Position numbers and translations under genes: made by a program. The notes beneath the pieces were generated by a model that saw only the letters and a list, made by a program, of their open reading frames with translations, did not search any database and had not been told where the DNA came from. A DNA stretch of 64,000 nt from Candidatus Hydrogenedens sp. (lineage in GTDB: Bacteria; Hydrogenedentota; Hydrogenedentia; Hydrogenedentales; Hydrogenedentaceae): contig JBMFRC010000008.1 in the NCBI GenBank assembly GCA_049968235.1, positions 64,001-128,000 on the forward strand, written 5' to 3'. Numbering within the stretch: the stretch's first letter is position 1; every line of letters starts with the position of its first letter. This document shows, piece after piece, positions 9,461 through 42,196 of the stretch.

Positions 9461-9709
9461 AATAGATGTAAAGTGGTAAAGTAAACAGTTTAATATTGAA
9501 AACAAAAGGGTGTCCGAAGGCATCGAAAGGAGGTGACCCGGTAAATGTCAGTTCGGACCATATGTAGTAATAAAAGTTGAATATAAATGCATAGGTATGT
9601 TGTAGGGACGCAACATAAAACCGAAGCATATTCGTTGTTTTGATTAAGGGACAATCAAAACAACACAAGGCAAGGACGCAACAAACATTAACTCATGGAG
9701 GAATTTGTT

Positions 9710-10525: not shown

Positions 10526-10615
10526 TAAAACTTTAACAGTAAAAGGTGTGTTCAAAATGAAACAATTAAGGGCAGGGAAAGCCCAAAGAAATAAGTAACT
10601 CAAGGAGGAATAACT

Positions 10616-11431
10616 ATGGGACTTCGTATTAACACAAATGTATCAGCGTTAAACGCTGCCCGTGTGTTACGCCGTAGCACACTGGATTTAAACAAATCCT
10701 TAGAGCAATTGTCCAGTGGTCTGAGAATTAACCGTGCTGCGGATGATGCAGCAGGACTGGCTATTGCAGAGAGTTTCCGCGCTCAAGTTCGTGGTACACA
10801 GGTGGCTCAGCGAAATGTTCAGGATGGTATTAGTCTCGTTCAAACGGCAGAAGGAGCCTTGAGCGAAACGACAAACATCCTGCAACGAATTCGCGAATTA
10901 GCCGTGCAGGCAGCCAATGGAACCCAAAGTGATACCAACCGTGCCGCAATCCAGACCGAAGTAGGTGAATTGATTAGTCAAATTGATAAGATTGCTACGG
11001 ATACAGAGTTTAATGGTATCAAAGTTTTAACAGGGGCACAATCAGTTGTCATGCAAGCAGGTTATTTACAAGGGCAAACGCTAAGTTTAACAATTAGCGG
11101 TGCTACGGCAGCGATACTGAGTGTAAACAATCTGGCGGTATCCACTCGGTCTCTTGCAGAATCCGCCATTACACTGGTTGACAATGCTTTGAGATCTGTA
11201 AATACCTTGCGGGCGACATTGGGTGCTTATCAGAACCGTATGGAGTTCACAATTAATACCTTAGCCATTCAGCAAGAGAACTCCTCAGCCTCTGAAAGTG
11301 CTATTCGCGATGCGGATATTGCTCAGGTAACCATTCGGTTCACCCGTAACCAGATACTTGTAAACGCAGGAACTTCCGTATTAGCTCAAGCCAATGTCGT
11401 CCCACAAACAGCATTACAATTATTAAGATAA
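10616..11431 (+). CDS. Flagellin (copy 2 of 4)
   Basis: Same conserved flagellin termini, 271 aa, SD AAGGAGGAA. Confidence 0.9.
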   Translation: MGLRINTNVSALNAARVLRRSTLDLNKSLEQLSSGLRINRAADDAAGLAIAESFRAQVRGTQVAQRNVQDGISLVQTAEGALSETTNILQRIRELAVQAANGTQSDTNRAAIQTEVGELISQIDKIATDTEFNGIKVLTGAQSVVMQAGYLQGQTLSLTISGATAAILSVNNLAVSTRSLAESAITLVDNALRSVNTLRATLGAYQNRMEFTINTLAIQQENSSASESAIRDADIAQVTIRFTRNQILVNAGTSVLAQANVVPQTALQLLR

Positions 11432-11524
11432 TTGATGGGAAACATAAGGTTTGATTAAAATTGAATTACTCTTGGACAAAAAACTCATGGATGGGATAAC
11501 AATAACTCATGGAGGAATTTAGTT

Positions 11525-12340
11525 ATGGGTTTAAGAATTAACACAAATATACCGGCAATAAATGCAAGCCGGGTACTCCGCAGAACAACAGCGGATTTGA
11601 ACAAAACGTTGGAACAATTATCCAGCGGTTTGCGTATCAATCGTGCTGCAGATGATGCGGCGGGCCTTGCTATCGCTGAAGCATTTCGTTCCCAGGTATT
11701 GGGAACAGGTGTAGCCCAGCGGAATGCCCAAGACGGTATCAGTCTTGTTCAAACAGCAGAAGGTGCTTTGAGCGAAACGACAAATATTCTGCAACGGATG
11801 CGTGAACTGGCTGTTCAAGCGGCAAATGGCACACAAAGTGATAGTAATCGTTCGGCAATACAAGGTGAAATCAATCAACTGATTCAACAAATTAATGCAA
11901 TTGCTACCGATACAGAATTCAACGGTATCACAGTTTTAAATACAACCAGTGCTATTCAAATTCAAGCAGGGGTATATTCCGGACAAACCCTTGCTTTGAG
12001 TATGGCTTCTGCAACAGCCGCTGCACTGGGTGTCAGTCTTGTCAGTGTTGTTTCTGCTGTGTTAGCCGCTTCCGCAATCAGTGTAATTGATGCGGCATTA
12101 GGCACTGTAAATACCCTGCGAGCAAGATTGGGTGCTTATCAGAATCGTCTGGAATTCACAATAAATACCCTCGCTATCCAGCAGGAAAATGCCTCCGCAT
12201 CAGAAAGCGCTATTCGCGATGCAGATATTGCTCAGGTGACGATACGCTTTACCCGAAACCAAATTTTGCTGAACGCAGGGACATCTGTATTGGCACAAGC
12301 TAATATTGTTCCCCAGACAGCATTGCAGTTGTTGAGGTAA
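11525..12340 (+). CDS. Flagellin (copy 3 of 4)
   Basis: Same conserved flagellin termini, 271 aa, SD GGAGGAA. Confidence 0.9.
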   Translation: MGLRINTNIPAINASRVLRRTTADLNKTLEQLSSGLRINRAADDAAGLAIAEAFRSQVLGTGVAQRNAQDGISLVQTAEGALSETTNILQRMRELAVQAANGTQSDSNRSAIQGEINQLIQQINAIATDTEFNGITVLNTTSAIQIQAGVYSGQTLALSMASATAAALGVSLVSVVSAVLAASAISVIDAALGTVNTLRARLGAYQNRLEFTINTLAIQQENASASESAIRDADIAQVTIRFTRNQILLNAGTSVLAQANIVPQTALQLLR

Positions 12341-12350
12341 AGTTACTCTC

Positions 12351-12376
12351 GAGGGCAGGGTATATCCCCTGCCCTC
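12351..12376 (+). terminator. GC-rich hairpin (perfect 10-bp stem, 6-nt loop) downstream of flagellin copy 3; no U-tract
   Basis: GAGGGCAGGG-TATATC-CCCTGCCCTC, 11 nt after the stop codon. Confidence 0.35.
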
Positions 12377-12501
12377 TGTCTGGAACATATATTATCAGTA
12401 TTAACCTTTTCAGGGATGGCGTGAAAGACCTGAAAGCATGTCTGATAATTAAAAGAAAGGGAATTCTGGATAAGTGTTAAACACTCAAGGAGGTAAGAAC
12501 T

Positions 12502-13317
12502 ATGGGACTTCGAATAAACACAAATATCCCGGCTTTAAATACCGCACGGGTTCTACGGAAGTCTACTCTTGACCTTAATAAAAGTCTGGAAAGGTTAAGT
12601 AGTGGTCTGCGTATTAACCGCGCTGCGGATGATGCAGCAGGGCTTGCCATCGCAGAAAGTTTCCGGGCTCAGGTTCGCGGGACAAATGTGGCTCAACGAA
12701 ATGCACAGGACGGTATCAGTCTGGTTCAAACAGCAGAAGGTGCATTGAGCGAAACAACAAATATCCTGCAACGGATTCGCGAACTTGCAGTTCAGGCAGC
12801 GAATGGAACACTAAGTAGCACAAATCGAAGTGCATTGAACACAGAAGCACAGGAGTTAATTTCGCAAATCGATAAGATTGCTAATGATACTGAGTTCAAT
12901 AGTTTACGGATATTAAGTGCTACCAACAGTGTTGTTCTTCAAGCAGGTCCTAATCAAGGACAAACACTGACTGTTTCCATTGATGCAGCAAATGCCAGTG
13001 TGTTAGGTGTAAGTGGGATTTCTCTGGCTTTTGCAGATTCTGCTGCTGCGGCTATCACAAAAGTTGACGATGCATTAAGAAGTGTAAATACTCTCCGAAG
13101 TAAATTAGGTGCTTATCAAAATCGGTTAGAGTTTACTATTAACACTCTTGCCATTCAAGAAGAAAATGCAGCATCTTCAGAAAGTGCTATCCGCGATGCA
13201 GATATTGCCCAGGAAACAATCCGGTTTACTCGCAATCAAATTCTGGTGAATGCGGGAACATCTGTGCTTGCACAAGCCAATATCGTTCCCCAGACAGCAT
13301 TAGCATTATTGAGATAA
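12502..13317 (+). CDS. Flagellin (copy 4 of 4)
   Basis: Same conserved flagellin termini, 271 aa, SD AAGGAGG. Confidence 0.9.
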   Translation: MGLRINTNIPALNTARVLRKSTLDLNKSLERLSSGLRINRAADDAAGLAIAESFRAQVRGTNVAQRNAQDGISLVQTAEGALSETTNILQRIRELAVQAANGTLSSTNRSALNTEAQELISQIDKIANDTEFNSLRILSATNSVVLQAGPNQGQTLTVSIDAANASVLGVSGISLAFADSAAAAITKVDDALRSVNTLRSKLGAYQNRLEFTINTLAIQEENAASSESAIRDADIAQETIRFTRNQILVNAGTSVLAQANIVPQTALALLR

Positions 13318-13337
13318 AATAGAGGAGGCGGAGCACT

Positions 13338-13745
13338 ATGGGTATGTCGCGTATTGATTTTCAGAATACCGCGGCTCTTCCTATGGTTATACATGGAGAA
13401 ACTCCGTTACCCGCTCCGCCTCGCATTCCTTCTTCACAAGGTTCAGGAGCAGAAAACCCAGTTGTTGTTTCTGACAGAACTGCTCCCGGCGAGGCGGAAC
13501 AAAGAGCCGAATTGCAAAAGGAAACTGTCGGGCAAATTACAACTGAACGAAATGAAATTCTGAAAAAATTAGAACTTCCCATGACAACTACGCGTTTAAA
13601 GGTAGATGAAGAAAATCAACGAATTGTTATTCAGATTTTAGATTCTCAAAATCAGGTTATCCGTCAAATACCACCGGAAGAATGGCTAAAATTTCTGTCA
13701 CGCTGGCAAAAAGTACAGGGCTTATTCTTTGATGAACAAGTATAA
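13338..13745 (+). CDS. flaG: FlaG family flagellar protein
   Basis: A small protein immediately after the flagellins. Its C-terminal block LKVDEENQRIVIQILDSQNQVIRQIPPEE is typical of FlaG. A GGAGG SD lies 8 nt upstream. Confidence 0.6.
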   Translation: MGMSRIDFQNTAALPMVIHGETPLPAPPRIPSSQGSGAENPVVVSDRTAPGEAEQRAELQKETVGQITTERNEILKKLELPMTTTRLKVDEENQRIVIQILDSQNQVIRQIPPEEWLKFLSRWQKVQGLFFDEQV

Positions 13746-14670: not shown

Positions 14671-15882
14671 ATGGGGAATATAAACGAACTTGCTATATTA
14701 GGAGGAGAACCTGTAAGACCTCCCGAAAAAAAGTGGCATTCCTGGCCTGTTTTTGACGAGCAAGAACGAAATGCTATTTTAGAAGTTCTCGAAAGTGGAA
14801 AATGGTTCTATGGTGAGAAAGTAAAACAATTTGAAGAAGTCTATTCTCAGTTTCAAAAAGCGAAATATTGTGTCTCTTGTAATAGCGGAACAACCGCACT
14901 TGAAATAACACTACAAGCAATAGGATTACAACACGGTGAAGAGGTCATAGTCCCCCCTTATACATTTATTGCAACCGCTTCTGCAGTTGTGCGTATGGGT
15001 GGAATTCCTATTTTTGTAGATGTAGACGAAACATGGTGTATGGACCCTGACATAATTGAATCTGCAATTACACCTCGAACAAAAGCCATAATCCCTGTTC
15101 ACTTCGGTGGGAAAATCTGCGATATGGATAAAATTAATGCAGTGGCACAGAAACATAATCTTGTTGTAATTGAAGATGCCTGTCATGCCTGGGGCGGAGC
15201 ATGGAAAGGGAAAGGAGCAGGAACATTAGGGCTTGGAGGTGTATTTAGTTTCCAGATGTCTAAAAATATTACTGCAGGTGAAGGTGGAGCCATTGTTACT
15301 GATGATGAAAATTTTGCGGATATATGTCGTTCTATAAGCAATTGTGGTCGCTCAAAAACGGGTCCCTGGTATTATCATGAACGAATTGGGACCAATGTGC
15401 GAATGAACGAGTTTACCGCAAATATCCTATTAGCACAGTTATCCCGAGCAGAAAAACAACTGCAAATTCGAGAAGCAAATGGTACTTATCTTACCCAGGC
15501 TTTAATGGATATACCCGGTATTTACCCCCAACCCTTAAGTAATCGCATTACACGAAGGGCATATCATCTTATTTGTATTCGAATCAAAGAGGAAGAGTTT
15601 GGTTGTTCTCGAGAATTGTTTGTAAAAGCAGTACATGCGGAAGGATTACCTATAACATCAGGTTATCCATATCCGATTTATAAACAGCCTGCATTCCAGA
15701 ATGCTAACTTTTATGATTATTCACAAACATACTGTCCTATAACAGAAGATTTATGCTATAAGAGTGGTACATGGTTACCCCATCATATTTTACTGGGGAA
15801 AGAAAAAGATATGGAAGACATTGTAAAAATTATCCGTAAAGTGCAGAAACATGCTCCGGAATTAAAAAAATTGAATGCTTAA
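14671..15882 (+). CDS. DegT/DnrJ/EryC1/StrS family PLP-dependent sugar aminotransferase
   Basis: The PLP-lysine region SFQMSKNITAGEGGAIVTDDE is characteristic, and the overall length and blocks match ArnB/PseC-type enzymes. Confidence 0.85.
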   Translation: MGNINELAILGGEPVRPPEKKWHSWPVFDEQERNAILEVLESGKWFYGEKVKQFEEVYSQFQKAKYCVSCNSGTTALEITLQAIGLQHGEEVIVPPYTFIATASAVVRMGGIPIFVDVDETWCMDPDIIESAITPRTKAIIPVHFGGKICDMDKINAVAQKHNLVVIEDACHAWGGAWKGKGAGTLGLGGVFSFQMSKNITAGEGGAIVTDDENFADICRSISNCGRSKTGPWYYHERIGTNVRMNEFTANILLAQLSRAEKQLQIREANGTYLTQALMDIPGIYPQPLSNRITRRAYHLICIRIKEEEFGCSRELFVKAVHAEGLPITSGYPYPIYKQPAFQNANFYDYSQTYCPITEDLCYKSGTWLPHHILLGKEKDMEDIVKIIRKVQKHAPELKKLNA

Positions 15883-15900
15883 AATGCCTATCGAACAATT

Positions 15901-15940
15901 CAGACCTGTCTGATATATTTGACTCGTCAGACTCGTCTGA
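15901..15940. promoter_or_regulatory. Pair of short inverted repeats (CAGAC-N2-GTCTG) upstream of the large GT-C/TPR gene; candidate operator
   Basis: CAGACCTGTCTG at 15901-15912 and TCAGACTCGTCTGA at 15927-15940. A direct repeat GACTCGTC occurs at 15921 and 15930. Confidence 0.3.
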
Positions 15941-16021
15941 TTTGTTCGACTCATCATAATTACAAGGAGAGGTCCTATTACGAAGCAATCTTTCTGGATA
16001 TTATTAATTCTTTTCTTAGGA

Positions 16022-19000
16022 TTGGGGTTAAGAGTCCTTTACCTTTCCGATGCAATAAAAAATCCGGATTTTTCAGCACCCCTACACGATGCGGAATTTA
16101 AAGATTACTGGGCAAGGGCTATCTTATCCGGTAATTATACACCTCCACGGAATGAAGGTAATCCATTTATGGAAGGTCATCCCCTTCCCAATCCACCGGG
16201 CTATCCCTTATTCCTTGCATTGATTTATTGGTTAACAGAAGGTAGTTATCTCGCCGTGCGATGGGTTCAAATTTGTATTGGACTTCTTAATATATTCCTT
16301 GTGTATCTATTAGGCAAAAACCTCTTTGATTATAAAGCCGGGCTTTTTTCTGCATTAGGAGTGGCTACCTACTGGGCGTTTGTCCACTATGATATGGAAC
16401 TTAATCAGGTTACCATCTTTATAACCATAAATTTATTATGTTTCAATTTACTTCTACAGGCATATAAAAAAAATAAATTAGGACTACTTTCCTTAGCAGG
16501 TCTTATATTCGGGATGGGGGCATGGTTCCGTGGCGAAGTGTTTATTCTCATTTTCCCGCTAACAATATTTGTTATGTTCCTTTTTTTTCATCCGGGACGG
16601 CTAAAAACTGTTTTTTACACAGGATTGTTATTCTTAGTTTCTGCACTACTATCTGTGCTTCCATTATCTTTATACAATTACTATCTTTGTGGTTCGTTTA
16701 CTTCAGGCTCACATAATAGCGAATGTAGTATCTCCATCGCTTTTCACCCGGACACACCCGAATACGGTTCATATACACCGGAGATGCTTCGATGGCTCAA
16801 TAAAACGCCTGAGGATACGGTGGAAATATTTGATCTGGACGGAATGACCCTTGGCTTAGGAAAACAATTAGGATTGGAACGAAGAGCAACTTATAAGGAA
16901 TGGAAAAATTATCTTATCTCCGGTGCTATACATAATATAAAAACATATCCATGGCTCAATCTTAAAAAATGCTTAAAACGATTTTTATGGACTTTTTCCC
17001 CACAAGAATTGGATGAAAATAAAGTGATTTATTATGAGCGAGAAGTTTCAACAGTACTAAAATACTTACCTCGTTTTCCTCTCGCAATGAGTTTATTCAC
17101 TTTAAGCCTTATTTTACTCGTTATCTCCTTGTCATCAAAAGGGGCTATACCGATAAAAATAAGCACTTGCTCCTGGAAATTCATATTCGTCTTGTTATTT
17201 TTTGTTGCAACAAATATCAGCATTTTTTCGCTTTTGATAGCAGGAAGTCGATATCGTATATCCCTTCTCCCCTATTTTTTTATTTTTGGTGGTATTGTTT
17301 TTTCGTCATTATGGGAAACGGTCTCGAACAAAAGATGGAATTGGGCTACTTTGATTATTTTTGGTTTCCTTATTCTTTTTTCGTTAGCCCATGTTCCATT
17401 TTTCGATTACCAGCCCAACCGCTCCCGATGGTTAGATGAACGGCGAAAATGTTATCAGAGAATTGGAAAGATAGCGGAAGGAGTACAATTCTTTGAAAAA
17501 TGGTTAGAAAAACATTCAGACGCAGATGCTCATTATCACGCGGGGGTCCTTTGTTATGAACTCAATGAACTAACAAAGGCAGAAGAACATTTTTATACTT
17601 GTCTCAAATTATCACCTGACCATCCATCCGCTCCTTATAATTTAGGTTTGATTTTTGCAAAAAGAGGTGATTGGGCAAAAGCAGGAAAATATTTTGAGGA
17701 AGCCGTAAAAAGAAATCCGAGCAAAGCGGATATGTGGTTCGCATTAGGTTGGGCAACTGAAAACAGTGGTGATTTATCTACTGCATTAGAGCATTACACA
17801 CATGCATTGAATATAAATCCACACCATACTCAGGCATTAAATCATAGTGCCGTAATTATGTTTCAAAAAGGGGAAGGAAAAACTGCAAAACAACATCTTG
17901 AACAGGCAATTCGCATTGACCCTAACTATGTAGATGCACGATTTAATTTGGGTCAAATTCTCTTAGCGGAACGGAAACCTGCAGATGCCTTGAAGCAATT
18001 CATGACTGTTAAAGGGAAGTATCAACCGGAACATGAATTATTAAAATGTATAGGATTATGTTATGTCCAGATGCTTGATTATAAGGAGGCACTAAATTAT
18101 CTCTTAAAAGCAAAGGGAATGAACCCCGAGAAATGGGATGCAGAAGATAGTCTTGCTGTCTGTTACGCAGGATTAGGCATGCGAGAAGAATGTATACGAA
18201 CAATTGAAATATTAGAGGATAAATTATCTAATTCAATACAGGTTTTTAATTTGGGGCATGCATGGGAATTACTGGGAGAATGGGATAAAGCAGAAACTTA
18301 TTATAAAACTGTTATTGAAAAAGATAAAAACAATGCAGATACATACGCAGGATTGGGAAATATTTCTTTAATTCGTGGGGACAAAAACTCCGCTTACATG
18401 TATTTCAAACAGGCATTGGAAATTAACCCACATCAAGTTGGGGCATGGTTCAATTTAATTTTATCATGGGTAGAAAATCGAGAATGGGAAAAAGCAAAAA
18501 CACAGTTAATAGAGTTTATAAATTATTATCCCGAACATATAGAGGCATACTATAATTTAGGGATTGTAAATGAAGCCTTAGGCAATATTGAGGATGCAAA
18601 AAAGTCGTATGAAAAAGTGTTAGAAAAGAAATCAGACCATTCAGGGGCTTTATTCTCCCGCGCTACTATTGCTTTATCGGAAATGGATTTAGAAAATGCA
18701 AAAGAACTATTTGAGAAACTTAAGCCTATTGAACCGTTTAAATCTTTATATCATTTAGGAATTGTTTATTCATTAAAGGAGGATTGGAACAATGCACATG
18801 ATTGTTTCTTAAATTCTTTTTTTATAAATCCTCAACCCTTTTATAATGATTATATATATGCGTTTAATATCGGTAGAAGTTATGACCATCTTGACTGCTT
18901 ATATGAGGCGGAGAAATTCTACCGTATTTCTTTTGAATTGAATAATAATTTCGTAGATGCGAAAGATGCCCTCTCTTTTCTTCTTTTTCAACAAGGAAAT

Positions 19001-20014
19001 ACAGAAGAAGCATATTTTTTGTTAAATTCTATATTCTTATATCAAAAACCTACGAACTGGTCATATTACCACTACTCCCTTGTCTGGGAACACATGAATG
19101 AACCCTCAATAGCGTTAAGTTTTGCAGAACAAGCCAATGCGATAATGCCGAATCAGTCGCCAATCCTTCATCAATTAGGGGGATTATATCGCAAATTGAA
19201 AAATTATAATCTCGCCGAACAATATTTAGAGCAGGCAATGACACTTAACCCTCATGACGCAACAATTACAAAAACATTAGCCTTTTTACATTCCGACCTT
19301 GAGCGGTATAAAGAAGCAAAAGAATTGTTCATAACTTGCACAAATTTGCTTCCTGACGACCCGGAGGTGTATGAAGGACTTGCTGATGTCTATATAAAGA
19401 CCGGCGAATTAAAAAAGGCAGAAGAAAACTATCGCAAAGCATTAGCAATCAAGGATACCCCCACAGTAATTAACAAGTTAGGATTATTACTTGCTGATTT
19501 AAATAAAATCTTTGAGAGTGTTGGACTATTGGAAATAGCCGTTAAATACTTTCCGAATGATGCCATCACACTTACACGACTTGCTGACTTGAAAGTGATT
19601 TTACACTCCGATATAGAAGCAAAAACACTTTATGAACGGGCATTGGCAATAGATACTCAAAATTATCTAACTCATAGAAACTATGCAGATTTGTTAGTCC
19701 GTTCCGGTGAATATGAACTTGCCGAAAAACATTACAAACTTGCCATAGAACTTCACCCCAAAGACCCAGTTGCACAAGCAGGACTGGGATTACTATATGC
19801 TCGTATAAATAAATATGAGGAAGCCAAAAAATATTTGATACCTCTGGCACAAGTGAAGACAGATTTACTTAATGTAAACCAACAACTGACTCAGATATTC
19901 CTTTCAGAAAATCAACCTGAAAAAGCCATTAAATACATCAAACGATGTATACTGGCACAACCAGACCGAAAAGAATTCCGTGAACTTCTTCAACAGGCTA
20001 CTCAGATGCGGTAA
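16022..20014 (+). CDS. GT-C fold (PMT/GT39-like) membrane glycosyltransferase fused to about 25 TPR repeats (eukaryotic TMTC-like architecture)
   Basis: The N-terminal ~450 aa are polytopic, with an acidic loop motif HDAEF followed by NPPGYPLFLALIYWL (resembling the hPPLgkLLiAlg block of PMTs). After that come continuous TPR-like repeats to the C-terminus. The annotated start is TTG. The frame is open upstream to 15941 and encodes a TM-like segment (SFWILLILFLGLG), so the real start probably lies upstream. Confidence 0.75.
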   Translation: MGLRVLYLSDAIKNPDFSAPLHDAEFKDYWARAILSGNYTPPRNEGNPFMEGHPLPNPPGYPLFLALIYWLTEGSYLAVRWVQICIGLLNIFLVYLLGKNLFDYKAGLFSALGVATYWAFVHYDMELNQVTIFITINLLCFNLLLQAYKKNKLGLLSLAGLIFGMGAWFRGEVFILIFPLTIFVMFLFFHPGRLKTVFYTGLLFLVSALLSVLPLSLYNYYLCGSFTSGSHNSECSISIAFHPDTPEYGSYTPEMLRWLNKTPEDTVEIFDLDGMTLGLGKQLGLERRATYKEWKNYLISGAIHNIKTYPWLNLKKCLKRFLWTFSPQELDENKVIYYEREVSTVLKYLPRFPLAMSLFTLSLILLVISLSSKGAIPIKISTCSWKFIFVLLFFVATNISIFSLLIAGSRYRISLLPYFFIFGGIVFSSLWETVSNKRWNWATLIIFGFLILFSLAHVPFFDYQPNRSRWLDERRKCYQRIGKIAEGVQFFEKWLEKHSDADAHYHAGVLCYELNELTKAEEHFYTCLKLSPDHPSAPYNLGLIFAKRGDWAKAGKYFEEAVKRNPSKADMWFALGWATENSGDLSTALEHYTHALNINPHHTQALNHSAVIMFQKGEGKTAKQHLEQAIRIDPNYVDARFNLGQILLAERKPADALKQFMTVKGKYQPEHELLKCIGLCYVQMLDYKEALNYLLKAKGMNPEKWDAEDSLAVCYAGLGMREECIRTIEILEDKLSNSIQVFNLGHAWELLGEWDKAETYYKTVIEKDKNNADTYAGLGNISLIRGDKNSAYMYFKQALEINPHQVGAWFNLILSWVENREWEKAKTQLIEFINYYPEHIEAYYNLGIVNEALGNIEDAKKSYEKVLEKKSDHSGALFSRATIALSEMDLENAKELFEKLKPIEPFKSLYHLGIVYSLKEDWNNAHDCFLNSFFINPQPFYNDYIYAFNIGRSYDHLDCLYEAEKFYRISFELNNNFVDAKDALSFLLFQQGNTEEAYFLLNSIFLYQKPTNWSYYHYSLVWEHMNEPSIALSFAEQANAIMPNQSPILHQLGGLYRKLKNYNLAEQYLEQAMTLNPHDATITKTLAFLHSDLERYKEAKELFITCTNLLPDDPEVYEGLADVYIKTGELKKAEENYRKALAIKDTPTVINKLGLLLADLNKIFESVGLLEIAVKYFPNDAITLTRLADLKVILHSDIEAKTLYERALAIDTQNYLTHRNYADLLVRSGEYELAEKHYKLAIELHPKDPVAQAGLGLLYARINKYEEAKKYLIPLAQVKTDLLNVNQQLTQIFLSENQPEKAIKYIKRCILAQPDRKEFRELLQQATQMR

Positions 20015-21578
20015 CAGTTTTCGGATGGCTTAAAACCCGCTCCAGATAAGGAATCAGAGTATCCGCCATAATTTTTGCTTTCAGTTTTACCCCTTCCTGA
20101 CGCATGTGACAAATATCACCGAAATATTTTGTGCCCGCAGGCATATTCTCCGCAACCGGAATATAAAGGAGCCCATTATTCTCACAATAATCTCGCAATT
20201 GTTGATTAAATCTCTTCATAACATCGGAATATTGCTGAAAAGAGGAATTCGCCCAGCCCCATTCCTTATCATAATAAAAATCATAATAATCACGTTCCTC
20301 CTTGTTTACTTTTTCACGGTAAGGGACACCAATACTGGAAATACACATATCTATACCCCTTGACAAAAAAGAATGAAGTATATAATCAATATATCTAAAA
20401 ATGTATTGATTGATATATTCATCTATCTCTTCTTGCGGATATTGTAAAACTGACCTTATTTGTCTTCGCATAAATAGAGAGAAAAGTAATGCAATACGTG
20501 TTATTACCCGTTTACTATCAAAAGCATGGGAAAATACTTCGTAAACTACATCGTTAATTCCTTCATATAAAATCACCATGTCAGGTTGAAAATATAAATA
20601 ATCCGGTAATTTCGCACAATGCTTCTTTAAAACCATACCAGAAATACCACAATTAAAGACTTCAATACGATTTTCTCCGAAATGTTTTTTCAATTCTTGC
20701 TCTAAGAATTTTGGATAGGTCTCTTGATTAGAAATACCCTCTTCCGTAGTAGACGCACCAATACACAGGATGCGGAAAACTCCTTCGGGTTTCGGAACCT
20801 TAAAATCTTTATCTCTATAACCAAAATTATTGATTCGAAATGCCATCTCTGTAGAGTTCCGATGAGGCATATAGGAGAAATAATTTATGTCCCATAAGTC
20901 ATTCACAGATAACTTTCCTACCCATGGATTGATAGAATCATTTTTCCCTCTATACGGTAGAGCAAACACATAGAAAGAGTAATTTTCAAGATTTTCGCGT
21001 AAAGGGTAGAAAAAAAATTTATATGGTTTTTCCTGCATCGTCTCATGCCATAAAAAAGCCCTATATGATTGAAACATATCCTTCGGAATTGTCTTTATAA
21101 TTTCTTGATATATCAACAGATTGTCATTAATCCCAAAAGCCTTATCTGTGGGAGAACACGTTATATCAAAACTTTTTTTATTAATGTTGAGTTTGAACTG
21201 CTTTATGTCATAAATAGTTCGGAAAGCCTCCTGAAAAGTTTCATCCTCATCAAAATAGAAGTTAAAACGATAACTCCACATTTCTAATGGGTCGGGCTCT
21301 GGCAGACACCATTCATCGCCAACATATAATTGTTGCAGAGAAAACAAATTTTTCCCCTCCCCATAATGAACTCCTTCTTCTTTACCCTCGTCCCATTCCT
21401 TTATTAACAATTCACCACGACGGATACGAACAAATTTGTTTGTCTTTTCGATATATTTCCACCTTAATCGTTCAAATAATTCTAGAGATAAACAGATGAC
21501 AATAAACCAGAATAAAATGAAAAAACAATAACCCAAGATATAAACAAATCTCTTCGTTTTTTTGTGCTTCAACTCCAT
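19998..21578 (-). CDS. Membrane-anchored SGNH/GDSL-family hydrolase or O-acyltransferase (paralog A)
   Basis: N-terminal TM anchor. The C-terminal SGNH blocks are FRILCIGASTTEEG (block I, Ser codon at 20751-20753), FNCGISG (II), YEGINDVVY (III) and GDICHMRQEG (V, DxxH). Confidence 0.65.
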   Translation of the reverse strand: MELKHKKTKRFVYILGYCFFILFWFIVICLSLELFERLRWKYIEKTNKFVRIRRGELLIKEWDEGKEEGVHYGEGKNLFSLQQLYVGDEWCLPEPDPLEMWSYRFNFYFDEDETFQEAFRTIYDIKQFKLNINKKSFDITCSPTDKAFGINDNLLIYQEIIKTIPKDMFQSYRAFLWHETMQEKPYKFFFYPLRENLENYSFYVFALPYRGKNDSINPWVGKLSVNDLWDINYFSYMPHRNSTEMAFRINNFGYRDKDFKVPKPEGVFRILCIGASTTEEGISNQETYPKFLEQELKKHFGENRIEVFNCGISGMVLKKHCAKLPDYLYFQPDMVILYEGINDVVYEVFSHAFDSKRVITRIALLFSLFMRRQIRSVLQYPQEEIDEYINQYIFRYIDYILHSFLSRGIDMCISSIGVPYREKVNKEERDYYDFYYDKEWGWANSSFQQYSDVMKRFNQQLRDYCENNGLLYIPVAENMPAGTKYFGDICHMRQEGVKLKAKIMADTLIPYLERVLSHPKTVTASE

Positions 21579-23056
21579 TAACTTTTTCCTGATTGTGCTT
21601 TAATATATTTCACCAAATATGGTGTCGCTAATTCTGATTTTTTTCGAATTCCTTGTAATTTTTGATGACATAAATCATTAAAATAGGATGGGGATTCGTT
21701 CTGAAACATTTCATACATCGGGATATATAGAACATTCTCATTATTAAACTTTTTGCTTAACAGTCTATTATATACATCCAGAACATGGCTATACATACGA
21801 TAGTTTACGAAATTACCTCCCCACCATCTTTTTGTAACAAACTGGAAATAATCTTTCTCCTGCCATGTCATCGAGGAATAATTGGGGGCTGGCATACTCA
21901 TTACTGCAAACAATATACCTTTCTGCTGAAGATAATTGTTTATTTTTTCTATCTGGCTTAATATATCTTTATTAATATCACTTTGTATTTGTATGTCGTT
22001 GGGAAGAAAGAATAGGGGAAAAATATTCCGGCATAAATTTGAATGGATAAGTATTTTTTTTATTCCGTTCAGATGATTTAACCAGTAAGGCAGTAAAATG
22101 TGGGTTATATCATTTGCCCCTTCACAATAGAGAACAAGATTTGGTTCCATCAACAGATAATCTGGTAATCTCAGCCATAATTTATGAGCAGAAATGCCCG
22201 GTATTCCAGCATTAATCACTTCAATTTTATATTGTTGCTGGAATTGTTCCAATAAAAGTTTTTCCATGATATTTGGATAGGTTTCTTGCTCTGTAGGACC
22301 CTCTTCTGTGGTCGAACCACCGATACATACAATTCGGAACACACCTAATGGTTTAGGAACTACCACATCCTCATCACGAAATCCAAAATTGTTCGTATGA
22401 AATTCATAAGAGTTCAATTGTGCATGTTTCTTATACTCAAAATAAGGTATTTCCCAGATTCCGTTTCTATCCTTTATATTTCGGGGATAATTATTATTAC
22501 CTGCTTTATACCAGCATACCATGACCCCACGATTTTTCGTGTCCATTTTATAATAAACAAAAAGGTCGGAAATACTTTCCTCACCTTTTGCAAAAGAATG
22601 ATAATATTTTGAATAAACTTCCTGGCTTTGAATTGGTATTTCCTTCTCTAATATATTTATCAGTTCTTCATCAAAGTAATTTTTCGTAGTGGGTTCAGGC
22701 AGGTATGTAATTATCTCTTTTTTATCCATATCTTTTACAAGGGTGGTTATTTGATAAAAAGAAGAAAACAATTGTCTGTCGGTTTCATCCAATTGTAAGA
22801 AAAACTTTGCCCGATTGGCATACCATTGAGACATATCAGGAGAGTGAAACTTTTCTACAGATTGCAGTGGTTTTTGCGACACAACTTCACTGTGGCTCCA
22901 TGGAGGTTTATCATTCAAAGAGGAGATGAGAGGATTCTTTTGTATAACAAGATATTCATATATACGCACTACACATTCAGCAACTGCAATTGCAACAATA
23001 ATCCAGAGAAAAAAAATCAATATTTTACCGATACTTTTTACGAAATGATATTTCAT
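21578..23056 (-). CDS. Membrane-anchored SGNH/GDSL-family hydrolase or O-acyltransferase (paralog B)
   Basis: N-terminal TM anchor, FRIVCIGGSTTEEG, INAGIPG, CEGANDITH and NDLCHQKLQG. It shares a 1-nt overlap with paralog A and a 4-nt ATGA overlap with the upstream GT-C gene. Confidence 0.65.
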   Translation of the reverse strand: MKYHFVKSIGKILIFFLWIIVAIAVAECVVRIYEYLVIQKNPLISSLNDKPPWSHSEVVSQKPLQSVEKFHSPDMSQWYANRAKFFLQLDETDRQLFSSFYQITTLVKDMDKKEIITYLPEPTTKNYFDEELINILEKEIPIQSQEVYSKYYHSFAKGEESISDLFVYYKMDTKNRGVMVCWYKAGNNNYPRNIKDRNGIWEIPYFEYKKHAQLNSYEFHTNNFGFRDEDVVVPKPLGVFRIVCIGGSTTEEGPTEQETYPNIMEKLLLEQFQQQYKIEVINAGIPGISAHKLWLRLPDYLLMEPNLVLYCEGANDITHILLPYWLNHLNGIKKILIHSNLCRNIFPLFFLPNDIQIQSDINKDILSQIEKINNYLQQKGILFAVMSMPAPNYSSMTWQEKDYFQFVTKRWWGGNFVNYRMYSHVLDVYNRLLSKKFNNENVLYIPMYEMFQNESPSYFNDLCHQKLQGIRKKSELATPYLVKYIKAQSGKS

Positions 23057-25269
23057 TGAGGTGCCGGGAAGGTTTGCTGAGGGTTATTTTTCAGTCGCTC
23101 CAATTCCGTGGCAGGACGAAGGTCTGTGGGGTCAAGTTCTATCGCTTTCTGAAAATATTCAATTGCTTTCTCATGATTTCCTAACCCTAAATATGCCCTA
23201 CCCATACAGGTATGAGCAAATGAATCATTGGGTAATAATTGAAATGCCTTTTCCAACGCTGAAATAGCTGATTCATATTGCCCTCGATTAATGTGAATAT
23301 CAGCAATATTAATCCAGTTCCATGGGTATTGTTCCGGTTTCAATTCAACAGCCTTTGTAAACGCTTCGATGGCAAGGTCCCATTCCTGTAATTCTTTATA
23401 GGACATTCCAAGATAGGAGTATGCCTGTGCATAACCGGGGTCAAGTTGAATCACATGTTTGCAGGTATCAACTGCAGACCAATAATCGTTAACTCGCCAG
23501 AATTCCAGAGCCATAGCACATAAATCTTCTAATAAGGCTACCGATTTCTTGTTGTACGTTTTCACAGAGTCCTGTAAAGAAAATATCTGGTGGTAAACAA
23601 CCACTCGCTGAATGCCAGCAAATTCCTCTGCTTTGTAAATAATCCCTTTTTCCTTTAAATATTTTTCAAAATGATAAAGCGGTGCAGACTCAAAATAATC
23701 CCCCTGAACAACAATCCATAATTTTGCATTGGGTCTTCGTACTGGCAACAGTTTTGTAATCAGAAATTCAGCAATTTCGGCAGTATTCTCAAACTGCGAA
23801 CCATAACAAACAACATTGGGCACAGGACCTAAATTGTATAGGAAAACACGCTTCCATAATTCATTGTTTACAAGGATAATGTCTTCCGCTTTTGCATTAT
23901 GCTTGATAAATACACCTGCATTCTTCCAATCGGTGTGTTGCGGTTTCCCGAGGATTAAACTACCCTGGTACAAATACAAAAGTAGAAATGCGGTAAAGAG
24001 CAGTCGTTTTACCCATTTCTTACTTTCCACGCTATTAATAGTATAGCCAATAATCAGATACAGGGCAATCGAACTATGGAGAGTATATCTTGGCATAATA
24101 CAGGGTCGCCATAAGTGCGAAATAAAGTATAAAAATAAAGGAGGAAATAGCCACCAGATACAATAGAGCAGGATAAAAGAATTATTTGTTTTTCCAATAT
24201 TATTCGACTTTAATTCCTTATTATCTTTTTCCCTGAAAAAATAAGTCCAGATAGCCCCGACAAGGCAAAAGACATATAAAACTGCCATTACCCCCCCTAT
24301 AAAATATTGCTGTGATACAATAATCCGTGCAGTTTCTTTGCTAAAAAAATGCATCCAGAAATCGGGTTCCGCACGAAGTTGGTAAGTCCAACCAATACAA
24401 TCATCGGCAACAAGGTCGCCTATAAATTCACGGAGTGTCGGTATCTTCATCCAGGAAGAGGTCATATCCGGCGACCAAAAATTAATAGTTAGAATATACA
24501 ACACAGAAGGTAGTGAAATAAGGAACAGAGGAATAGCCCATTTCATCAGAAAAAGGATTTCTTCCCTCAAATAATCTTTATAAAACCACTCATTCGGTCT
24601 CCCATTGCGGTATCTCCAGGCACGAATGAGCAATCGGTCTACCAGTAAATATACCCCCTGAACCATAACAACCAGAGTCGCAAAGGGATGTGTCCAGAGA
24701 AGGAGAAATGTGATGATAAGGTAATAGATAAATGTTCTTCGTCTCTGTTCGCGATACCAATATATAAAAAAAAGCATGGACAGAATAGATAGGAGGGTGA
24801 ACAAACTATACATTCGTATCTCCTGTGAAAACTGCCGATGTATAGGCGACAGAGCCACGAGAAGACAGGCAATAAGCCCCGTAGAAGCATTAAAACTTAT
24901 ATTTCCTAAAATGTATGTGCTATAAATAACCGTCAATCCAATAAAGACCGAAAGAAGACGGAGAGAATAATATGATTCATCAATATAGGTATGCCAAAAA
25001 TATTCAATAGAATAATATAAAGGCATGGTAGCAGGGTCCATAGAGCGATTCTTTATCAAGAAATGCAGGATATTCATTGAAGGTTCATAATGAACACCCT
25101 GAGCCCAACGCGTAAAATTCGGCGAAGATTCATACTCAGCCAGCGGTTTCAGGTGAACAACACTACTAAATTCGTCCCACCATATAGATTCGTAACTTAA
25201 ACCTACAGAACGATATAAATAACCTGCAAGTAAAATTAAAAATAAATATAGAAATACTTTTGAATTCAT
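23053..25269 (-). CDS. GT-C fold (PMT/ArnT-like) membrane glycosyltransferase with C-terminal TPR repeats
   Basis: About 12 predicted TM segments, with SIWWDEF (acidic loop motif) and DPATMPLYY. The C-terminal ~150 aa are TPR-like (AYSYLGMSYKELQEWDLAIEAFTKAVELKP...). Confidence 0.7.
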   Translation of the reverse strand: MNSKVFLYLFLILLAGYLYRSVGLSYESIWWDEFSSVVHLKPLAEYESSPNFTRWAQGVHYEPSMNILHFLIKNRSMDPATMPLYYSIEYFWHTYIDESYYSLRLLSVFIGLTVIYSTYILGNISFNASTGLIACLLVALSPIHRQFSQEIRMYSLFTLLSILSMLFFIYWYREQRRRTFIYYLIITFLLLWTHPFATLVVMVQGVYLLVDRLLIRAWRYRNGRPNEWFYKDYLREEILFLMKWAIPLFLISLPSVLYILTINFWSPDMTSSWMKIPTLREFIGDLVADDCIGWTYQLRAEPDFWMHFFSKETARIIVSQQYFIGGVMAVLYVFCLVGAIWTYFFREKDNKELKSNNIGKTNNSFILLYCIWWLFPPLFLYFISHLWRPCIMPRYTLHSSIALYLIIGYTINSVESKKWVKRLLFTAFLLLYLYQGSLILGKPQHTDWKNAGVFIKHNAKAEDIILVNNELWKRVFLYNLGPVPNVVCYGSQFENTAEIAEFLITKLLPVRRPNAKLWIVVQGDYFESAPLYHFEKYLKEKGIIYKAEEFAGIQRVVVYHQIFSLQDSVKTYNKKSVALLEDLCAMALEFWRVNDYWSAVDTCKHVIQLDPGYAQAYSYLGMSYKELQEWDLAIEAFTKAVELKPEQYPWNWINIADIHINRGQYESAISALEKAFQLLPNDSFAHTCMGRAYLGLGNHEKAIEYFQKAIELDPTDLRPATELERLKNNPQQTFPAPQ

Positions 25270-25405
25270 ACCTAAGTTTTCGTTATCGCTTTATAGCCAA
25301 ATCTTTTTATACCTCAAATTATTTATAATAACATATCATAATAAGGATTGAATATTTGATGAACGCATAATAGATGCTTTTTAATTAAACCTATGGAGTA
25401 CGCCG

Positions 25406-26623
25406 ATGCGATCGTTTTTAAAAAATATATTATTAGCATTAGGGTCAATACTTGTGGTTCTTATATTGACCATGGTATTGGACCGACTGTTAGGGAACAT
25501 CCTGCCCAAGCCATTTCCTGAAGGCACACATGATTTAATTTTTCCTCCCTTATCGCGACAGGAATTCGCCTCAGTTGATTTTAAATATGTGGTAGAAACT
25601 AATTCATTAGGGATTCGGGACCGAGAAATACAAAGACCTAAAAGCAGTAATAGTTACCGCATCATAGCAGTTGGTGATTCCTATACTTACGGTTGGGGCG
25701 TGAATATTGAGGAAACCTGGCTCCGTGGACTGGAACAAAAACTGTTATTGGAGAACAAACAGATTGAAACTGTGAATTTAGGCAAACCCGGGACAGGTCC
25801 TCCTTTCTATGCAGAAATTACCCGCACTATTGTCCCCTTACTTGAACCCGATTTGATACTGGTCGGAATTTTACAGGGAAACGATATTGCTTCTTCAGGA
25901 ACGGAAGGGTTAGAGCAAATGAGTTCGGGATTGGTCCGCTGGACAAAATTATTTTACCCAAACTTTGTCCGTACAGTAGAAATGATGCAATTGACGCGTT
26001 CTCTTGAAACGCGGACACAGGAGCGACCCCCAGAAAAAACAACCGCAGAAGACAACGCAAAATGGTCTGCCAATACCGCAAAGGATTTTTATGAAAAAAT
26101 GTCCGCAGAGGAAAAACAAAGATTTGATAATTTCGATGCCGAAGTAAAACAAGCATTTTTTGATGGGCTATTAAATCCTTATATGATTGACCTTGCATTG
26201 AAGAACAAACACATTTATACACTAACATTAAACCCTGATGACCCATGGATTCAGCAATGTATTGGGAATATGGCAAAAGCATTACAAATCATAAAATCGG
26301 TAGCAAGTCAAAACGATGCTCAAGTTGCTGTCGTTAGTATCCCGGATGGCCCGTATGTGAATGAGGTTGCATGGAAAAATATTCAGCGTGTTGGATTCGA
26401 TGTAGTTCCAGACATGCTAACTTCCGATGCACCCGATAAAGTTATTCAGATTGCTTGTGAAAAGGTAGGTATCCCCTGTTATACCGTCTCCTTTGCATTT
26501 CGCCAGAGAAAACAAGACCCCAACTTGTTCTTTACACTGGATGGGCATTTGACCGCTGAAGGACATAAATTATTAGCAGAGACGCTTGCTCCTCAACTAC
26601 AGAAGTGGCTAACCAAAAAATGA
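25406..26623 (+). CDS. Membrane-anchored SGNH/GDSL-family hydrolase or O-acyltransferase (paralog C)
   Basis: N-terminal TM anchor, YRIIAVGDSYTYGWG (block I, GDS at 25672-25680), VNLGKPGTG (II), GILQGNDIAS (III, GxND) and FTLDGHLTAEGH (V, DxxH). Confidence 0.7.
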   Translation: MRSFLKNILLALGSILVVLILTMVLDRLLGNILPKPFPEGTHDLIFPPLSRQEFASVDFKYVVETNSLGIRDREIQRPKSSNSYRIIAVGDSYTYGWGVNIEETWLRGLEQKLLLENKQIETVNLGKPGTGPPFYAEITRTIVPLLEPDLILVGILQGNDIASSGTEGLEQMSSGLVRWTKLFYPNFVRTVEMMQLTRSLETRTQERPPEKTTAEDNAKWSANTAKDFYEKMSAEEKQRFDNFDAEVKQAFFDGLLNPYMIDLALKNKHIYTLTLNPDDPWIQQCIGNMAKALQIIKSVASQNDAQVAVVSIPDGPYVNEVAWKNIQRVGFDVVPDMLTSDAPDKVIQIACEKVGIPCYTVSFAFRQRKQDPNLFFTLDGHLTAEGHKLLAETLAPQLQKWLTKK

Positions 26624-27774
26624 ATAAAACAACAATACAAAAAAATATAAGCAAGAAAAAAATTGTTCTATTTACCTTTTTACCCCTCGCTATCTTACTT
26701 TTTAGCCTGGAACTGATAGCACGAATCATAGAGATATGGCTTCCTCCTATGGTGACAGATATCGGTTTAGGTTTTACAGAAGATTCCCGATTATTTATCC
26801 CTGACCCTTATGACAGCCGATATTTGATAACACATCCCAATAAGACTGTTGCTTTTCAAAATCAACGATTTCTAAAAAACAAACCATCAGGAACTTTACG
26901 CATATTTTTTCTCGGAGGTTCCTCTGTAAATTATGTTAACTACGAATTGCCAAATTTATCCGAACGATTGGAAGAAACACTTAAACCAAGATACAAAGAA
27001 GTCGAGATTATTAATTGTGGGGGACTTTCGTACGGGACACATCGACTTGTATTGATTGCTCGTGAGATTGTGAACTATAACCCTGACCTTGTAATGATAT
27101 ATTCCGGACATAATGAATTTGAAGAAATTGAACAATTACATTTAGCACGAGTGCAAATAACGAAATTACAACGGGTTTTGTTCTCCTCCGCAATGATGCG
27201 ATTTATTCGCGACCGAATCGCAACCTACCAGATATCCCAATTGGAAAAAGAGCATAATCGCAGAATGTTGGCTCAATCATTACCCGATGCAGGTAAAGGA
27301 TGGAATCATATTTTCACACCCCAGGAAATTGCAGAACGAATGGAAAAATACAAAAATAATCTCAACGAAATTATACAGTTATGTAAAGAGAAAAATATAA
27401 AAGTCGTTATTGCAACCGTTCCTTCAAACTATATAAAGCCCAATTTAATAGGGAAAACTGCAGAAGAATATGAACAAGTGTTGCAGTTAATTAAAGAAGA
27501 GAAATATAAAAAAGCGTATGAATTAGGTAGGAAAATTATTCGTGAAACTTCGCCACGACATCAATCTTCCGACCTTGAAAATAACATTGTGCGAGAACTC
27601 GCAGAGAAACATCATATTCCTCTGGCTGATGTTTTATCTGCAGTAGAGCGGGCAGAACCCCACCACATTCCCGGTGAAACTTTGTTTAATGACCATTGTC
27701 ACTTAAATCCAGAAGGCAATAGTATTATGATACATACATTTGAGGAAAAAATCTTACAGGTATTGGCAGAATAA
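26620..27774 (+). CDS. Membrane-anchored SGNH-family hydrolase (paralog D)
   Basis: N-terminal TM anchor, RIFFLGGSSVNY (block I), INCGGLSYG (II) and FNDHCHLNPEGN (V). The ATG at 26620 gives an ATGA overlap with the upstream stop; the ORF-track alternative is a GTG at 26605. Confidence 0.6.
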   Translation: MNKTTIQKNISKKKIVLFTFLPLAILLFSLELIARIIEIWLPPMVTDIGLGFTEDSRLFIPDPYDSRYLITHPNKTVAFQNQRFLKNKPSGTLRIFFLGGSSVNYVNYELPNLSERLEETLKPRYKEVEIINCGGLSYGTHRLVLIAREIVNYNPDLVMIYSGHNEFEEIEQLHLARVQITKLQRVLFSSAMMRFIRDRIATYQISQLEKEHNRRMLAQSLPDAGKGWNHIFTPQEIAERMEKYKNNLNEIIQLCKEKNIKVVIATVPSNYIKPNLIGKTAEEYEQVLQLIKEEKYKKAYELGRKIIRETSPRHQSSDLENNIVRELAEKHHIPLADVLSAVERAEPHHIPGETLFNDHCHLNPEGNSIMIHTFEEKILQVLAE

Positions 27775-34328: not shown

Positions 34329-34351
34329 ATAATTAAGCGAGCAAGTAGTGT

Positions 34352-41335: not shown

Positions 41336-42196
<861 letters not shown>

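Follow-up and report, generated by a model that had tools for sequence, protein, structure and literature searches.

What a predicted GT-C glycosyltransferase carrying tetratricopeptide repeats (TPRs) might do beside a set of membrane-anchored SGNH enzymes is the question raised by a seven-gene cassette in a 64,000-nucleotide stretch of Candidatus Hydrogenedens sp. DNA (assembly GCA_049968235.1, contig JBMFRC010000008.1, positions 64,001 to 128,000), the whole of which is called the window here. To our knowledge, the Hydrogenedentota are a widespread phylum known only from metagenomes, with 179 genomes in a published catalogue (PMC11406978), and we know of nothing reported on their envelope. 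The cassette encodes a DegT-family aminotransferase (DegT), two large putative GT-C proteins with TPRs (GTC1 and GTC2) and four SGNH proteins (SGNH-A to SGNH-D, or A to D), in the order DegT→GTC1→ ←A←B←GTC2 C→D→, with DegT and SGNH-D as its boundaries (Table 1). To judge from gene order and start/stop overlaps in related genomes, it is co-inherited, with translational coupling, across the phylum. The reading we favour, with a probability of roughly 0.55, is that of a Hydrogenedentota-specific envelope-modification system in which periplasmic glycosylation and ester editing are directed at one envelope glycoconjugate.

For the survey of loci, one genome per GTDB species was scanned with the block I motif C[IVA]G[AG]STTEE, giving 67 loci (numbered L001 and upwards), in all of which open reading frames (ORFs) were called and compared with the window proteins. 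Most of the loci were labelled Hydrogenedentota or Hydrogenedentes, the rest being described in their source labels as uncultured bacterium or as uncultured Nitrospirales/Nitrospiraceae metagenome-assembled genome (MAG). The full seven-gene order was found in three groups: Ca. H. terephthalaticus (L001, L002 and L005), a second group of L006 and L007 (~65–85% identity) and a third of L003, L010 and L011 (~41–77% identity). The full cassette was thus present in at least five further Hydrogenedentota lineages. In the second and third groups its flanks were unrelated (NrdR, ceramidase-like and GH28 genes; MFS and GH9 genes; Cys/Met-metabolism and sulfur-transfer genes), and the flagellin array that adjoins it in the window was seen beside it only in the Ca. 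H. terephthalaticus group, the adjacency being lost in L003, L006, L007, L010 and L011. Because the flanks differ among lineages, the full cassette appears to move as a unit and its flagellin neighbourhood to be incidental, so that the thought, left open in the first-pass annotation of this DNA, that proximity to the flagellin genes might be meaningful finds no backing.

In more distant genomes a core remains, in which ←D ←C diverges from GTC2→ A-type SGNH→ at 28–57% identity to the window proteins (L004/L012, L014, L020, L021, L023, L025, L051 and L071; in L004/L012 on a 5.1-Mb chromosome), often with overlapping start and stop codons. L024 and L067 also have a core with SGNH-C, SGNH-D not being within the fetched stretch, and GTC2 followed directly by an A-type SGNH gene was found in L013, L017, L018 and L029 as well. 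The earlier expectation that the cassette would be syntenic in related genomes is thereby borne out, in full order in the three groups and as a core beyond them. For a clustering of neighbourhoods, 20 loci were picked for GTC2 adjoining an A-type SGNH gene and all nearby ORFs were clustered. The recurrent families were GTC2 and A/B-type SGNH (20 loci each), SGNH-C (16), SGNH-D (14), GTC1-like proteins and DegT (8 each) and GT2 glycosyltransferases (4), and what other clusters there were consisted of ORFs that overlap known genes, either on the other strand or in a different frame. No MBOAT or AT3 family recurred among the neighbourhood ORFs of these 20 loci, and Pfam detected none in the window cassette, in keeping with the first-pass remark that an MBOAT-type partner is missing. 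The source annotations of the cassette proteins were generic only, and literature searches for this gene set or for a coupling of GT-C and SGNH enzymes returned nothing.

Clustering of genes that are neighbours by descent only, with no function in common, is a highly improbable account of this pattern. The genes hold their order and orientation, and their start/stop overlaps persist, at protein identities as low as 28–40% amid unrelated flanks, and the association of a GT-C/TPR protein with an SGNH protein bearing the STTEE motif recurs in three combinations.

Membership of the two large proteins in the GT-C superfamily is indicated by several lines of analysis. GTC1 matched Pfam PMT_2 with 56.7 bits (cut-off 26.1) and, over its C-terminal region, many TPR families; in GTC2 Pfam recognised the TPRs, together with sub-threshold matches to PMT_2 (21.6 bits) and PMT (19 bits), and a precomputed PF13231 (PMT_2) match was present in most GTC2 orthologues. 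The N-terminal profiles of GTC1 and GTC2 were homologous to each other (hhalign probability 97%, E 6.5e-11). Hydropathy gave 9–11 segments in each protein, and the AlphaFold model of GTC2 was confident (predicted local distance difference test score, pLDDT, 92; predicted template modelling score, pTM, 0.89), with 11 long helices, two helical extracytoplasmic loops (loop 1, aa 22–99; loop 4, aa 261–320), an α/β domain and TPRs. This topology is in line with the ~11–13 transmembrane (TM) helices and extracytoplasmic first long loop of GT-C enzymes, and the count of 11 helices would leave the C-terminal domains of GTC2 outside the cytoplasm. Both proteins also carry a conserved acidic motif where GT-C enzymes have their catalytic one, in the first extracytoplasmic loop: in GTC2 the ESxWWDE motif directly follows TM1, with D32 and E33 invariant in 36 sequences, and in GTC1 D38 and D43 are invariant in 10 homologues. 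The best fold match of the predicted GT-C model was the protein O-mannosyltransferase Pmt4, not ArnT. Pfam, hhalign, the model and the fold match thus agree with the first-pass description of both proteins as GT-C domains with C-terminal TPRs, and we regard GTC1 and GTC2 as putative GT-C enzymes that belong to the structural class of PMT, ArnT and OST and whose C-terminal domains are predicted to lie in the periplasm.

TPRs were also seen on other envelope-glycan enzymes in the surveyed loci, namely a 785-aa protein with a weak SGNH match (L067:13526-15883) and a 969-aa Wzy_C (O-antigen ligase/polymerase-like) protein (L004:1-577).

The same architecture invites comparison with PMT/TMTC-type protein O-glycosylation, in which the TPRs would select envelope proteins, possibly the SGNH enzymes or flagellins, as acceptors, and the SGNH proteins would be substrates or unrelated lipases. 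The 11 TM helices and C-terminal extracytoplasmic TPRs of the GTC2 model mirror TMTC1–4 (PMC7801869), GTC1 has its TPRs in the corresponding place, and the window has flagellin genes 1–5 kb upstream of the cassette. The hallmark of the TMTC family is nevertheless missing, since DUF1736 (PF08409) gave no match at E ≤ 0.01 in GTC2 and was not among the best 25 of 37 families for GTC1; Pfam found no MIR domain in either protein, and the predicted loops are short and helical. The first-pass term "TMTC-like" therefore holds as an analogy of architecture and not as a family identity, and strict membership in the TMTC or PMT families was rejected. Nor does such a reading account for the co-inheritance, throughout the phylum, of GTC2 with three catalytically intact SGNH families, and the linkers of SGNH-A are not rich in Ser/Thr. 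Flagellins are exported through the flagellar channel, with no periplasmic stage; this, together with the adjacency lost in five lineages, makes flagellin an unlikely glycosylation target. Protein O-glycosylation as the function of the cassette is, on this balance, unlikely.

The four SGNH proteins all matched Pfam Lipase_GDSL_2 at or near the cut-off (E 3.2e-10, 1.5e-7, 9.1e-8 and 5.2e-9 for A, B, C and D, respectively), and no Pfam match to the AlgX or DltD families was found in them. By hydropathy, A, B and C each have a single N-terminal hydrophobic segment, and D shows two peaks that overlap (aa 15–33 and 28–46). The N-terminal flanks of all four are Lys/Arg-rich, and because these residues precede the anchor the catalytic domains are predicted, by the positive-inside rule, to be extracytoplasmic, as had been proposed from the single N-terminal anchors. 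Among 30 A/B-type sequences S276, G311, N342, D488 and H491 are invariant, as is the whole block I motif CIGxSTTEEG, which extends to the family the IGxSTTEEG sequence first noticed in the A/B pair. The D family (13 sequences) has invariant S106, G139/G140, N170, D363 and H366, and the C family (15 sequences) invariant G90-D91-S92, G126, D379 and H381. Of the earlier statement that blocks I, II, III and V occur in all four proteins, the part concerning A, B and D stands, as do the Ser, Gly, Asp and His of C; the block III residue Asn159 of the C family, however, is Asp or Glu in several members and its block V has the spacing D-x-H, so that this family fits the SGNH block pattern only partly. 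Profile alignments link the families to one another (hhalign, A vs D 99.4%, E 4.3e-21; A vs C 98.5%, E 1.5e-15; C vs D 96.5%), which ties C and D to the α/β/α SGNH fold of the A family and indicates that the A/B, C and D families are distant paralogues. All four are thus predicted membrane-anchored enzymes whose catalytic residues are conserved, the one exception being the block III Asn, which varies in the C family. SGNH-D had 312 homologues, each one with a source name coming from Hydrogenedentes/Hydrogenedentota. SGNH-A matched a protein of a Candidatus Hydrogenedens sp. MAG at 100% identity.

In the AlphaFold model of SGNH-A (pLDDT 82, pTM 0.83) the best fold matches of the SGNH domain were carbohydrate acetyl-esterases, specifically CE3-like acetyl-xylan esterases, with the SGNH acyltransferases PatB, OatA and 8zbc also among the matches. 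The region between the anchor and the SGNH domain of A and B, which the first-pass annotation had left unassigned, was modelled in SGNH-A as a confident αα-ββ-αα-βββ domain flanked by low-confidence linkers. Foldseek ranked PAS domains after the SGNH matches (SrrB 7jl6, E 2.7e-3; 4ew7; 4zr7), and Pfam support for PAS was weak (PAS_4 in 1 of 30 members, E 0.0067), with weak PAS_4 matches noted in a few homologues. We therefore assign a PAS-like ectodomain to A and B with modest confidence, on the modelled order of secondary structure and the secondary Foldseek matches. At the outer end of the anchor helix each family has an invariant acidic residue closely followed by Arg (LELFER with E33 in A, LDR with D26 in C and LELIAR with E36 in D), so that the anchor is likely to be more than a passive tether; this pattern suggests a shared membrane-embedded contact.

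Such contacts, the fold matches to PatB, OatA and 8zbc and the lack of an MBOAT/AT3 partner in ~20 loci would suit O-acylation by another route, in which SGNH transferases move acyl groups from outer-leaflet lipids (compare GCAT-type enzymes) onto a sugar installed by the GT-C protein. The best fold matches are esterases, the sequences do not separate transferase from hydrolase, and the scheme is purely inferential; we consider it very unlikely. A fuller version of the idea, that the core (GTC2 with A-type, C and D SGNH proteins) is a membrane machine building an acylated glycoconjugate without MBOAT/AT3, with acyl groups drawn from outer-leaflet lipids, TPRs docking the SGNH enzymes and the PAS-like ectodomains of A/B selecting a strain-variable acceptor, is offered as a speculation and is quite unlikely to be right as it stands.

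The aminotransferase call is secure at family level (Pfam DegT_DnrJ_EryC1, E 9.5e-111), as the first-pass annotation had it. It reached none of the NCBIfam equivalog cut-offs, scoring 245 bits vs 423 for PseC and 203 bits vs 631 for ArnB (NF008658), and the closest solved relatives were AHBA synthase (241 bits) and glutamine:2-deoxy-scyllo-inosose aminotransferase (~219), behind which rank perosamine synthetase, WbpE and ArnB (176 for the last). DegT lies directly upstream of GTC1 in every GTC1-bearing locus, with a 4-nt overlap in L008. The parallel drawn earlier with ArnB/ArnT accordingly holds for the pairing of a DegT-family aminotransferase with a GT-C protein and fails for the ArnB equivalog itself.

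The DegT gene coupled to GTC1, and anchors that would put the SGNH active sites at the lipid surface, are what one would expect of a lipopolysaccharide (LPS)/lipid A remodelling island, in which ArnT-like GT-C proteins modify lipid A or core with an amino sugar derived from DegT and the SGNH proteins are lipid A or lipoglycan deacylases, as in the case of acyloxyacyl hydrolase. Against it stand the fold match to Pmt4 instead of ArnT, the low ArnB score and the AHBA/inosose affinities of DegT. There are no equivalents of ArnA, ArnC, ArnD, ArnE or ArnF in the window (no formyltransferase, GT2 or deformylase), ArnT itself has no TPR domain, and the best SGNH matches are carbohydrate acetyl-esterases. 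We hold this account, too, to be improbable.

The cassette is not the pair of duplicated modules, each of one GT-C and two SGNH proteins, that its mirrored layout had suggested. In a neighbour-joining bootstrap tree of A-type SGNH proteins, A (8 sequences) and B (7 sequences) each formed a clade with 100% bootstrap support; the A clade occurred with GTC1 and DegT in 8/8 loci and the B clade with GTC2 in 7/7, SGNH-B always directly after GTC2 and SGNH-A always converging on GTC1. L008 has A with DegT–GTC1, and GTC2, B, C and D are not in the fetched stretch; in genomes further removed, GTC2 is followed by just one A-type gene. L050 encodes a further 1320-aa GTC1-like protein adjoining an STTEE-SGNH paralogue, and in all GT-C/TPR proteins adjoin STTEE-SGNH genes in three different combinations. 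As far as this tree and these neighbourhoods tell, C and D are separate phylum-wide families always accompanying GTC2, A and B represent two ancient, sister-like clades, and the cassette is a phylum-wide core (D, C, GTC2 and B) joined to an accessory set (DegT, GTC1 and A), the recurring rule apparently being one PMT_2/TPR GT-C with one STTEE-type SGNH. Evolutionary rates differ sharply among the cassette proteins. Between the window and L001, identity was 92% for DegT, 90% for SGNH-D, 89% for GTC2 and SGNH-C, 83% for GTC1, 75% for SGNH-B (N-domain 63%) and 65% for SGNH-A (N-domain 54%); within the cassette, change is fastest in the PAS-like ectodomains of A and B, as would suit recognition of a variable ligand.

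In the envelope-modification system proposed here, GTC2, with the ESxWWDE active-site loop, the α/β domain and the TPRs facing the periplasm, would move a sugar from its donor onto an extracytoplasmic acceptor. The donor would be a polyprenyl-phosphate sugar produced by an enzyme of GT2–GtrA type, whose gene would lie elsewhere in this genome and in other genomes lies beside the core. Proteins with Glycos_transf_2 fused to GtrA_DPMS_TM (Pfam) are indeed encoded next to the core in L004, L014 and L067 (3 of ~14 distant loci), and this is the architecture of polyprenyl-phosphate glycosyltransferases; L025 has beside its core a GT2 gene without the GtrA/DPMS TM domain, and in L025 and L071 a different DegT gene adjoins the core. 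The polyprenyl-phosphate donor postulated in the first-pass annotation is in our judgement plausible. The three co-conserved tethered SGNH enzymes would act at the outer face of the inner membrane on ester-linked acyl groups, on the same acceptor or on the donor. Hydrolysis is favoured over transfer, because the periplasm is without acyl-CoA and no MBOAT/AT3 shuttle is co-encoded. The TPRs might scaffold the SGNH enzymes or bind the acceptor, and the accessory set, which would have a specialised esterase of its own, would supply a second decoration that may be an amino sugar or an aminocyclitol, the PAS-like ectodomains of A and B reading a variable ligand. What the analysis shows is the folds, the catalytic residues, the predicted topology, the synteny and the restriction to the phylum; the type of donor, the chemistry of the SGNH enzymes, any physical association of the proteins and the kind of acceptor are what we infer.

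Several observations weigh against this reading. N-terminal-only profiles of GTC1 and GTC2 found no solved structure in the PDB at E ≤ 10, and the matches of the full-length GTC2 profile to the PDB were swamped by TPR proteins, so that the GT-C membership of GTC2 rests on the model, the sub-threshold Pfam matches and transitive homology. The window itself contains no polyprenyl-phosphate glycosyltransferase or flippase gene, and all homologues come from uncultured MAGs. Activity of SGNH-C is less certain than that of the others, because its block III Asn is not conserved and its block V reads D-x-H. Moreover, the occurrence of STTEE-type SGNH genes in other contexts means that not all members of the family work with a GT-C protein.

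This family is in fact much expanded in Hydrogenedentota, most copies lying outside GT-C contexts and resembling A/B only in the catalytic domain. A single MAG (CAIYET01) has six STTEE-SGNH loci (L019, L023, L026, L030, L050 and L069), of which L026:3925-10488 holds four tandem copies.

The seven ORFs were recovered from the window at the positions reported before, with the same 4-nt and 1-nt overlaps, and only the start of GTC1 was moved. SGNH-B overlaps GTC2 by 4 nt, a sign of translational coupling, and SGNH-A by 1 nt, while SGNH-C and SGNH-D overlap by 4 nt. The divergent arrangement of GTC2 and SGNH-C is kept in orthologous loci. Scans for consensus promoters and terminators found no more sites than in shuffled sequence, the GTC2/SGNH-C intergenic region included. 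The convergent GTC1 and SGNH-A genes overlap by 17 nt at their 3' ends (19998-20014), leaving no space for terminators; the ORF calls show such an overlap in the orthologous loci too, of 20 nt in L001, L006 and L007 and of 17 nt in L008.

Table 1. Positions of the cassette genes and of the divergent intergenic region in the window, with predicted products
Feature	Position	Strand	Length and predicted features
DegT	14671..15882	+	403 aa; DegT/DnrJ/EryC1-family pyridoxal phosphate (PLP) sugar aminotransferase; first gene of the DegT→GTC1 pair
GTC1	15977..20014	+	Putative PMT_2-type GT-C, ~aa 1–470; TPR array, ~aa 484–1323; 1330 aa if started at TTG 16022
SGNH-A	19998..21578	-	526 aa; TM anchor; linkers around PAS-like α/β domain, ~aa 97–208; SGNH domain, ~aa 260–520
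SGNH-B	21578..23056	-	492 aa; SGNH-A paralogue (30% identity) with the architecture of SGNH-A
GTC2	23053..25269	-	738 aa; putative GT-C with 11 predicted TM helices; α/β domain, aa 448–564; ~4–5 TPRs, aa 577–728
Intergenic region	25270..25405		136 bp, AT-rich, between divergent GTC2 and SGNH-C; presumed to serve both core operons as promoter region
SGNH-C	25406..26623	+	405 aa; N-terminal TM anchor; SGNH domain with long helical insertion
SGNH-D	26620..27774	+	384 aa from ATG 26620; N-terminal TM anchor; SGNH domain with helical insertion

The first canonical start codon of GTC1 is TTG 16022. The frame is open upstream of it and encodes ...ITKQSFWILLILFLGLGLRV, and a strong Shine-Dalgarno sequence, AAGGAGAGG, lies 4 nt before an ATT codon at 15977. 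Because a start at TTG 16022 would remove TM helix 1, because AAGGAGAGG precedes the ATT and because orthologues with ATG starts have the helix, the true start is probably the non-canonical ATT 15977, which may be a conserved low-efficiency start. The orthologue in L007 shows a matching ATT-ACG-AAG arrangement (L007:15567-15620), and the one in L006 has no ATG, GTG or TTG before TM1 (L006:15546-15600). For SGNH-D, ATG 26620 fits the orthologues better than GTG 26605, the choice of the ORF tool (which would give 389 aa), and is most likely the start, with the 4-nt overlap with SGNH-C seen in orthologues.

Upstream of the cassette the window contains four tandem flagellin paralogues (271–276 aa) and flaG (9695-13745; G+C 0.43 vs ~0.36 around), together with a DUF1318 gene, and downstream an NPCBM α-galactosidase gene. 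A small protein of two LAB_N (lipid A biosynthesis N-terminal) domains (E 1e-39) is encoded at 1323-2009, ~13 kb from the cassette. At 32244-35518, [FeFe]-hydrogenase large-subunit and Fe-S domains are fused to HisKA/HATPase in what looks like a sensory hydrogenase histidine kinase, followed by a hybrid response-regulator/histidine-kinase gene. Two genes belong to the DAHP-synthase family (36932-37945 and 55366-56445), one with an N-terminal ferredoxin-like domain. An N6/N4 DNA methylase gene (41369–42196) adjoins the stretch of lowest G+C in the window (0.313, 42001–44000), the ORF within which had no family match, and 41369-44000 may be a restriction-modification or mobile remnant.

The cassette ranks among the most strongly co-inherited envelope gene sets of the phylum and pairs enzyme classes for which no cooperation has been described, a PMT/ArnT-like GT-C with TPRs and multiple membrane-anchored SGNH enzymes. 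Should the coupling prove true, the repertoire of glycan modification would extend beyond the GT2–flippase–GT-C scheme, a role for bacterial "TMTC-like" proteins would be shown, and an MBOAT-independent route of O-acyl editing might be revealed. The motifs ESxWWDE (GTC2), CIGxSTTEEG (A/B) and GGSSVNY, GHNEFEE and RHQSSD (D) could serve as markers and as targets for mutagenesis.

Among known systems, the Arn pathway resembles the cassette in having a DegT-family aminotransferase gene directly upstream of a GT-C gene, and differs from it in the ArnB cut-off that DegT fails, in the ArnA/C/D/E/F functions missing from the window and in the ~840 aa of TPRs on GTC1. PatB/Ape1, the OatA C-domain, AlgX/AlgJ and DltD share with the cassette enzymes the SGNH fold with its Ser-His-Asp triad and an extracytoplasmic position given by an N-terminal anchor. 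These proteins, however, depend on an MBOAT or AT3 partner, of which there is none in the cassette loci, whereas the cassette enzymes have CE3-like acetyl-xylan esterases as their best matches, and A and B stand further apart by their PAS-like ectodomain and by the unusual block I sequence CIGxSTTEEG. In PelB–PelA, PgaA–PgaB, AlgK and BcsC, periplasmic TPRs are encoded together with polymer-modifying esterases or deacetylases, the TPRs there being fused to outer-membrane porins or lipoproteins and not to a GT-C protein. Unlike these synthase-dependent exopolysaccharide systems the cassette has no synthase or porin gene; by analogy, the likeness suggests a docking role for its TPRs.

In TMTC proteins 11 TM helices are followed by luminal TPRs, and a DUF1736 loop between TM7 and TM8 is the family hallmark (PMC7801869). 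With TMTC1–4 (GT105) and PMT (GT39) the cassette GT-C proteins share a conserved acidic pair in the first loop, and with TMTC1–4 also 11 predicted TM helices before extracytoplasmic TPRs; they differ by the missing DUF1736 loop (TMTC) and MIR domain (PMT), by the extra α/β periplasmic domain of GTC2 between TM region and TPRs, and in being bacterial. The nearest framework is three-component extracytoplasmic glycosylation by a polyprenyl-phosphate GT2, a flippase and a GT-C, as in GtrABC, CsbB/GtcA/YfhO and the GT136 pentofuranose systems (Kelly et al. 2024; PMC11127046). As in these systems, the catalytic loop of the GT-C is predicted to be extracytoplasmic, and as in the GT136 prototype the GT-C has an extra C-terminal extracytoplasmic domain; a GT2 fused to a GtrA/DPMS-type TM domain stands beside the core in some related genomes. 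The window, in contrast, is without a GT2 or flippase gene, donor-synthesis genes being usually detached from the cassette, and its GT-C proteins carry TPRs in place of a carbohydrate-binding module. The cassette further departs from the three-component systems as described in having 3–4 membrane-anchored SGNH enzymes as obligatory neighbours, and we class it as a new variant, restricted to this phylum, of the extracytoplasmic glycosylation systems built on a GT-C enzyme.

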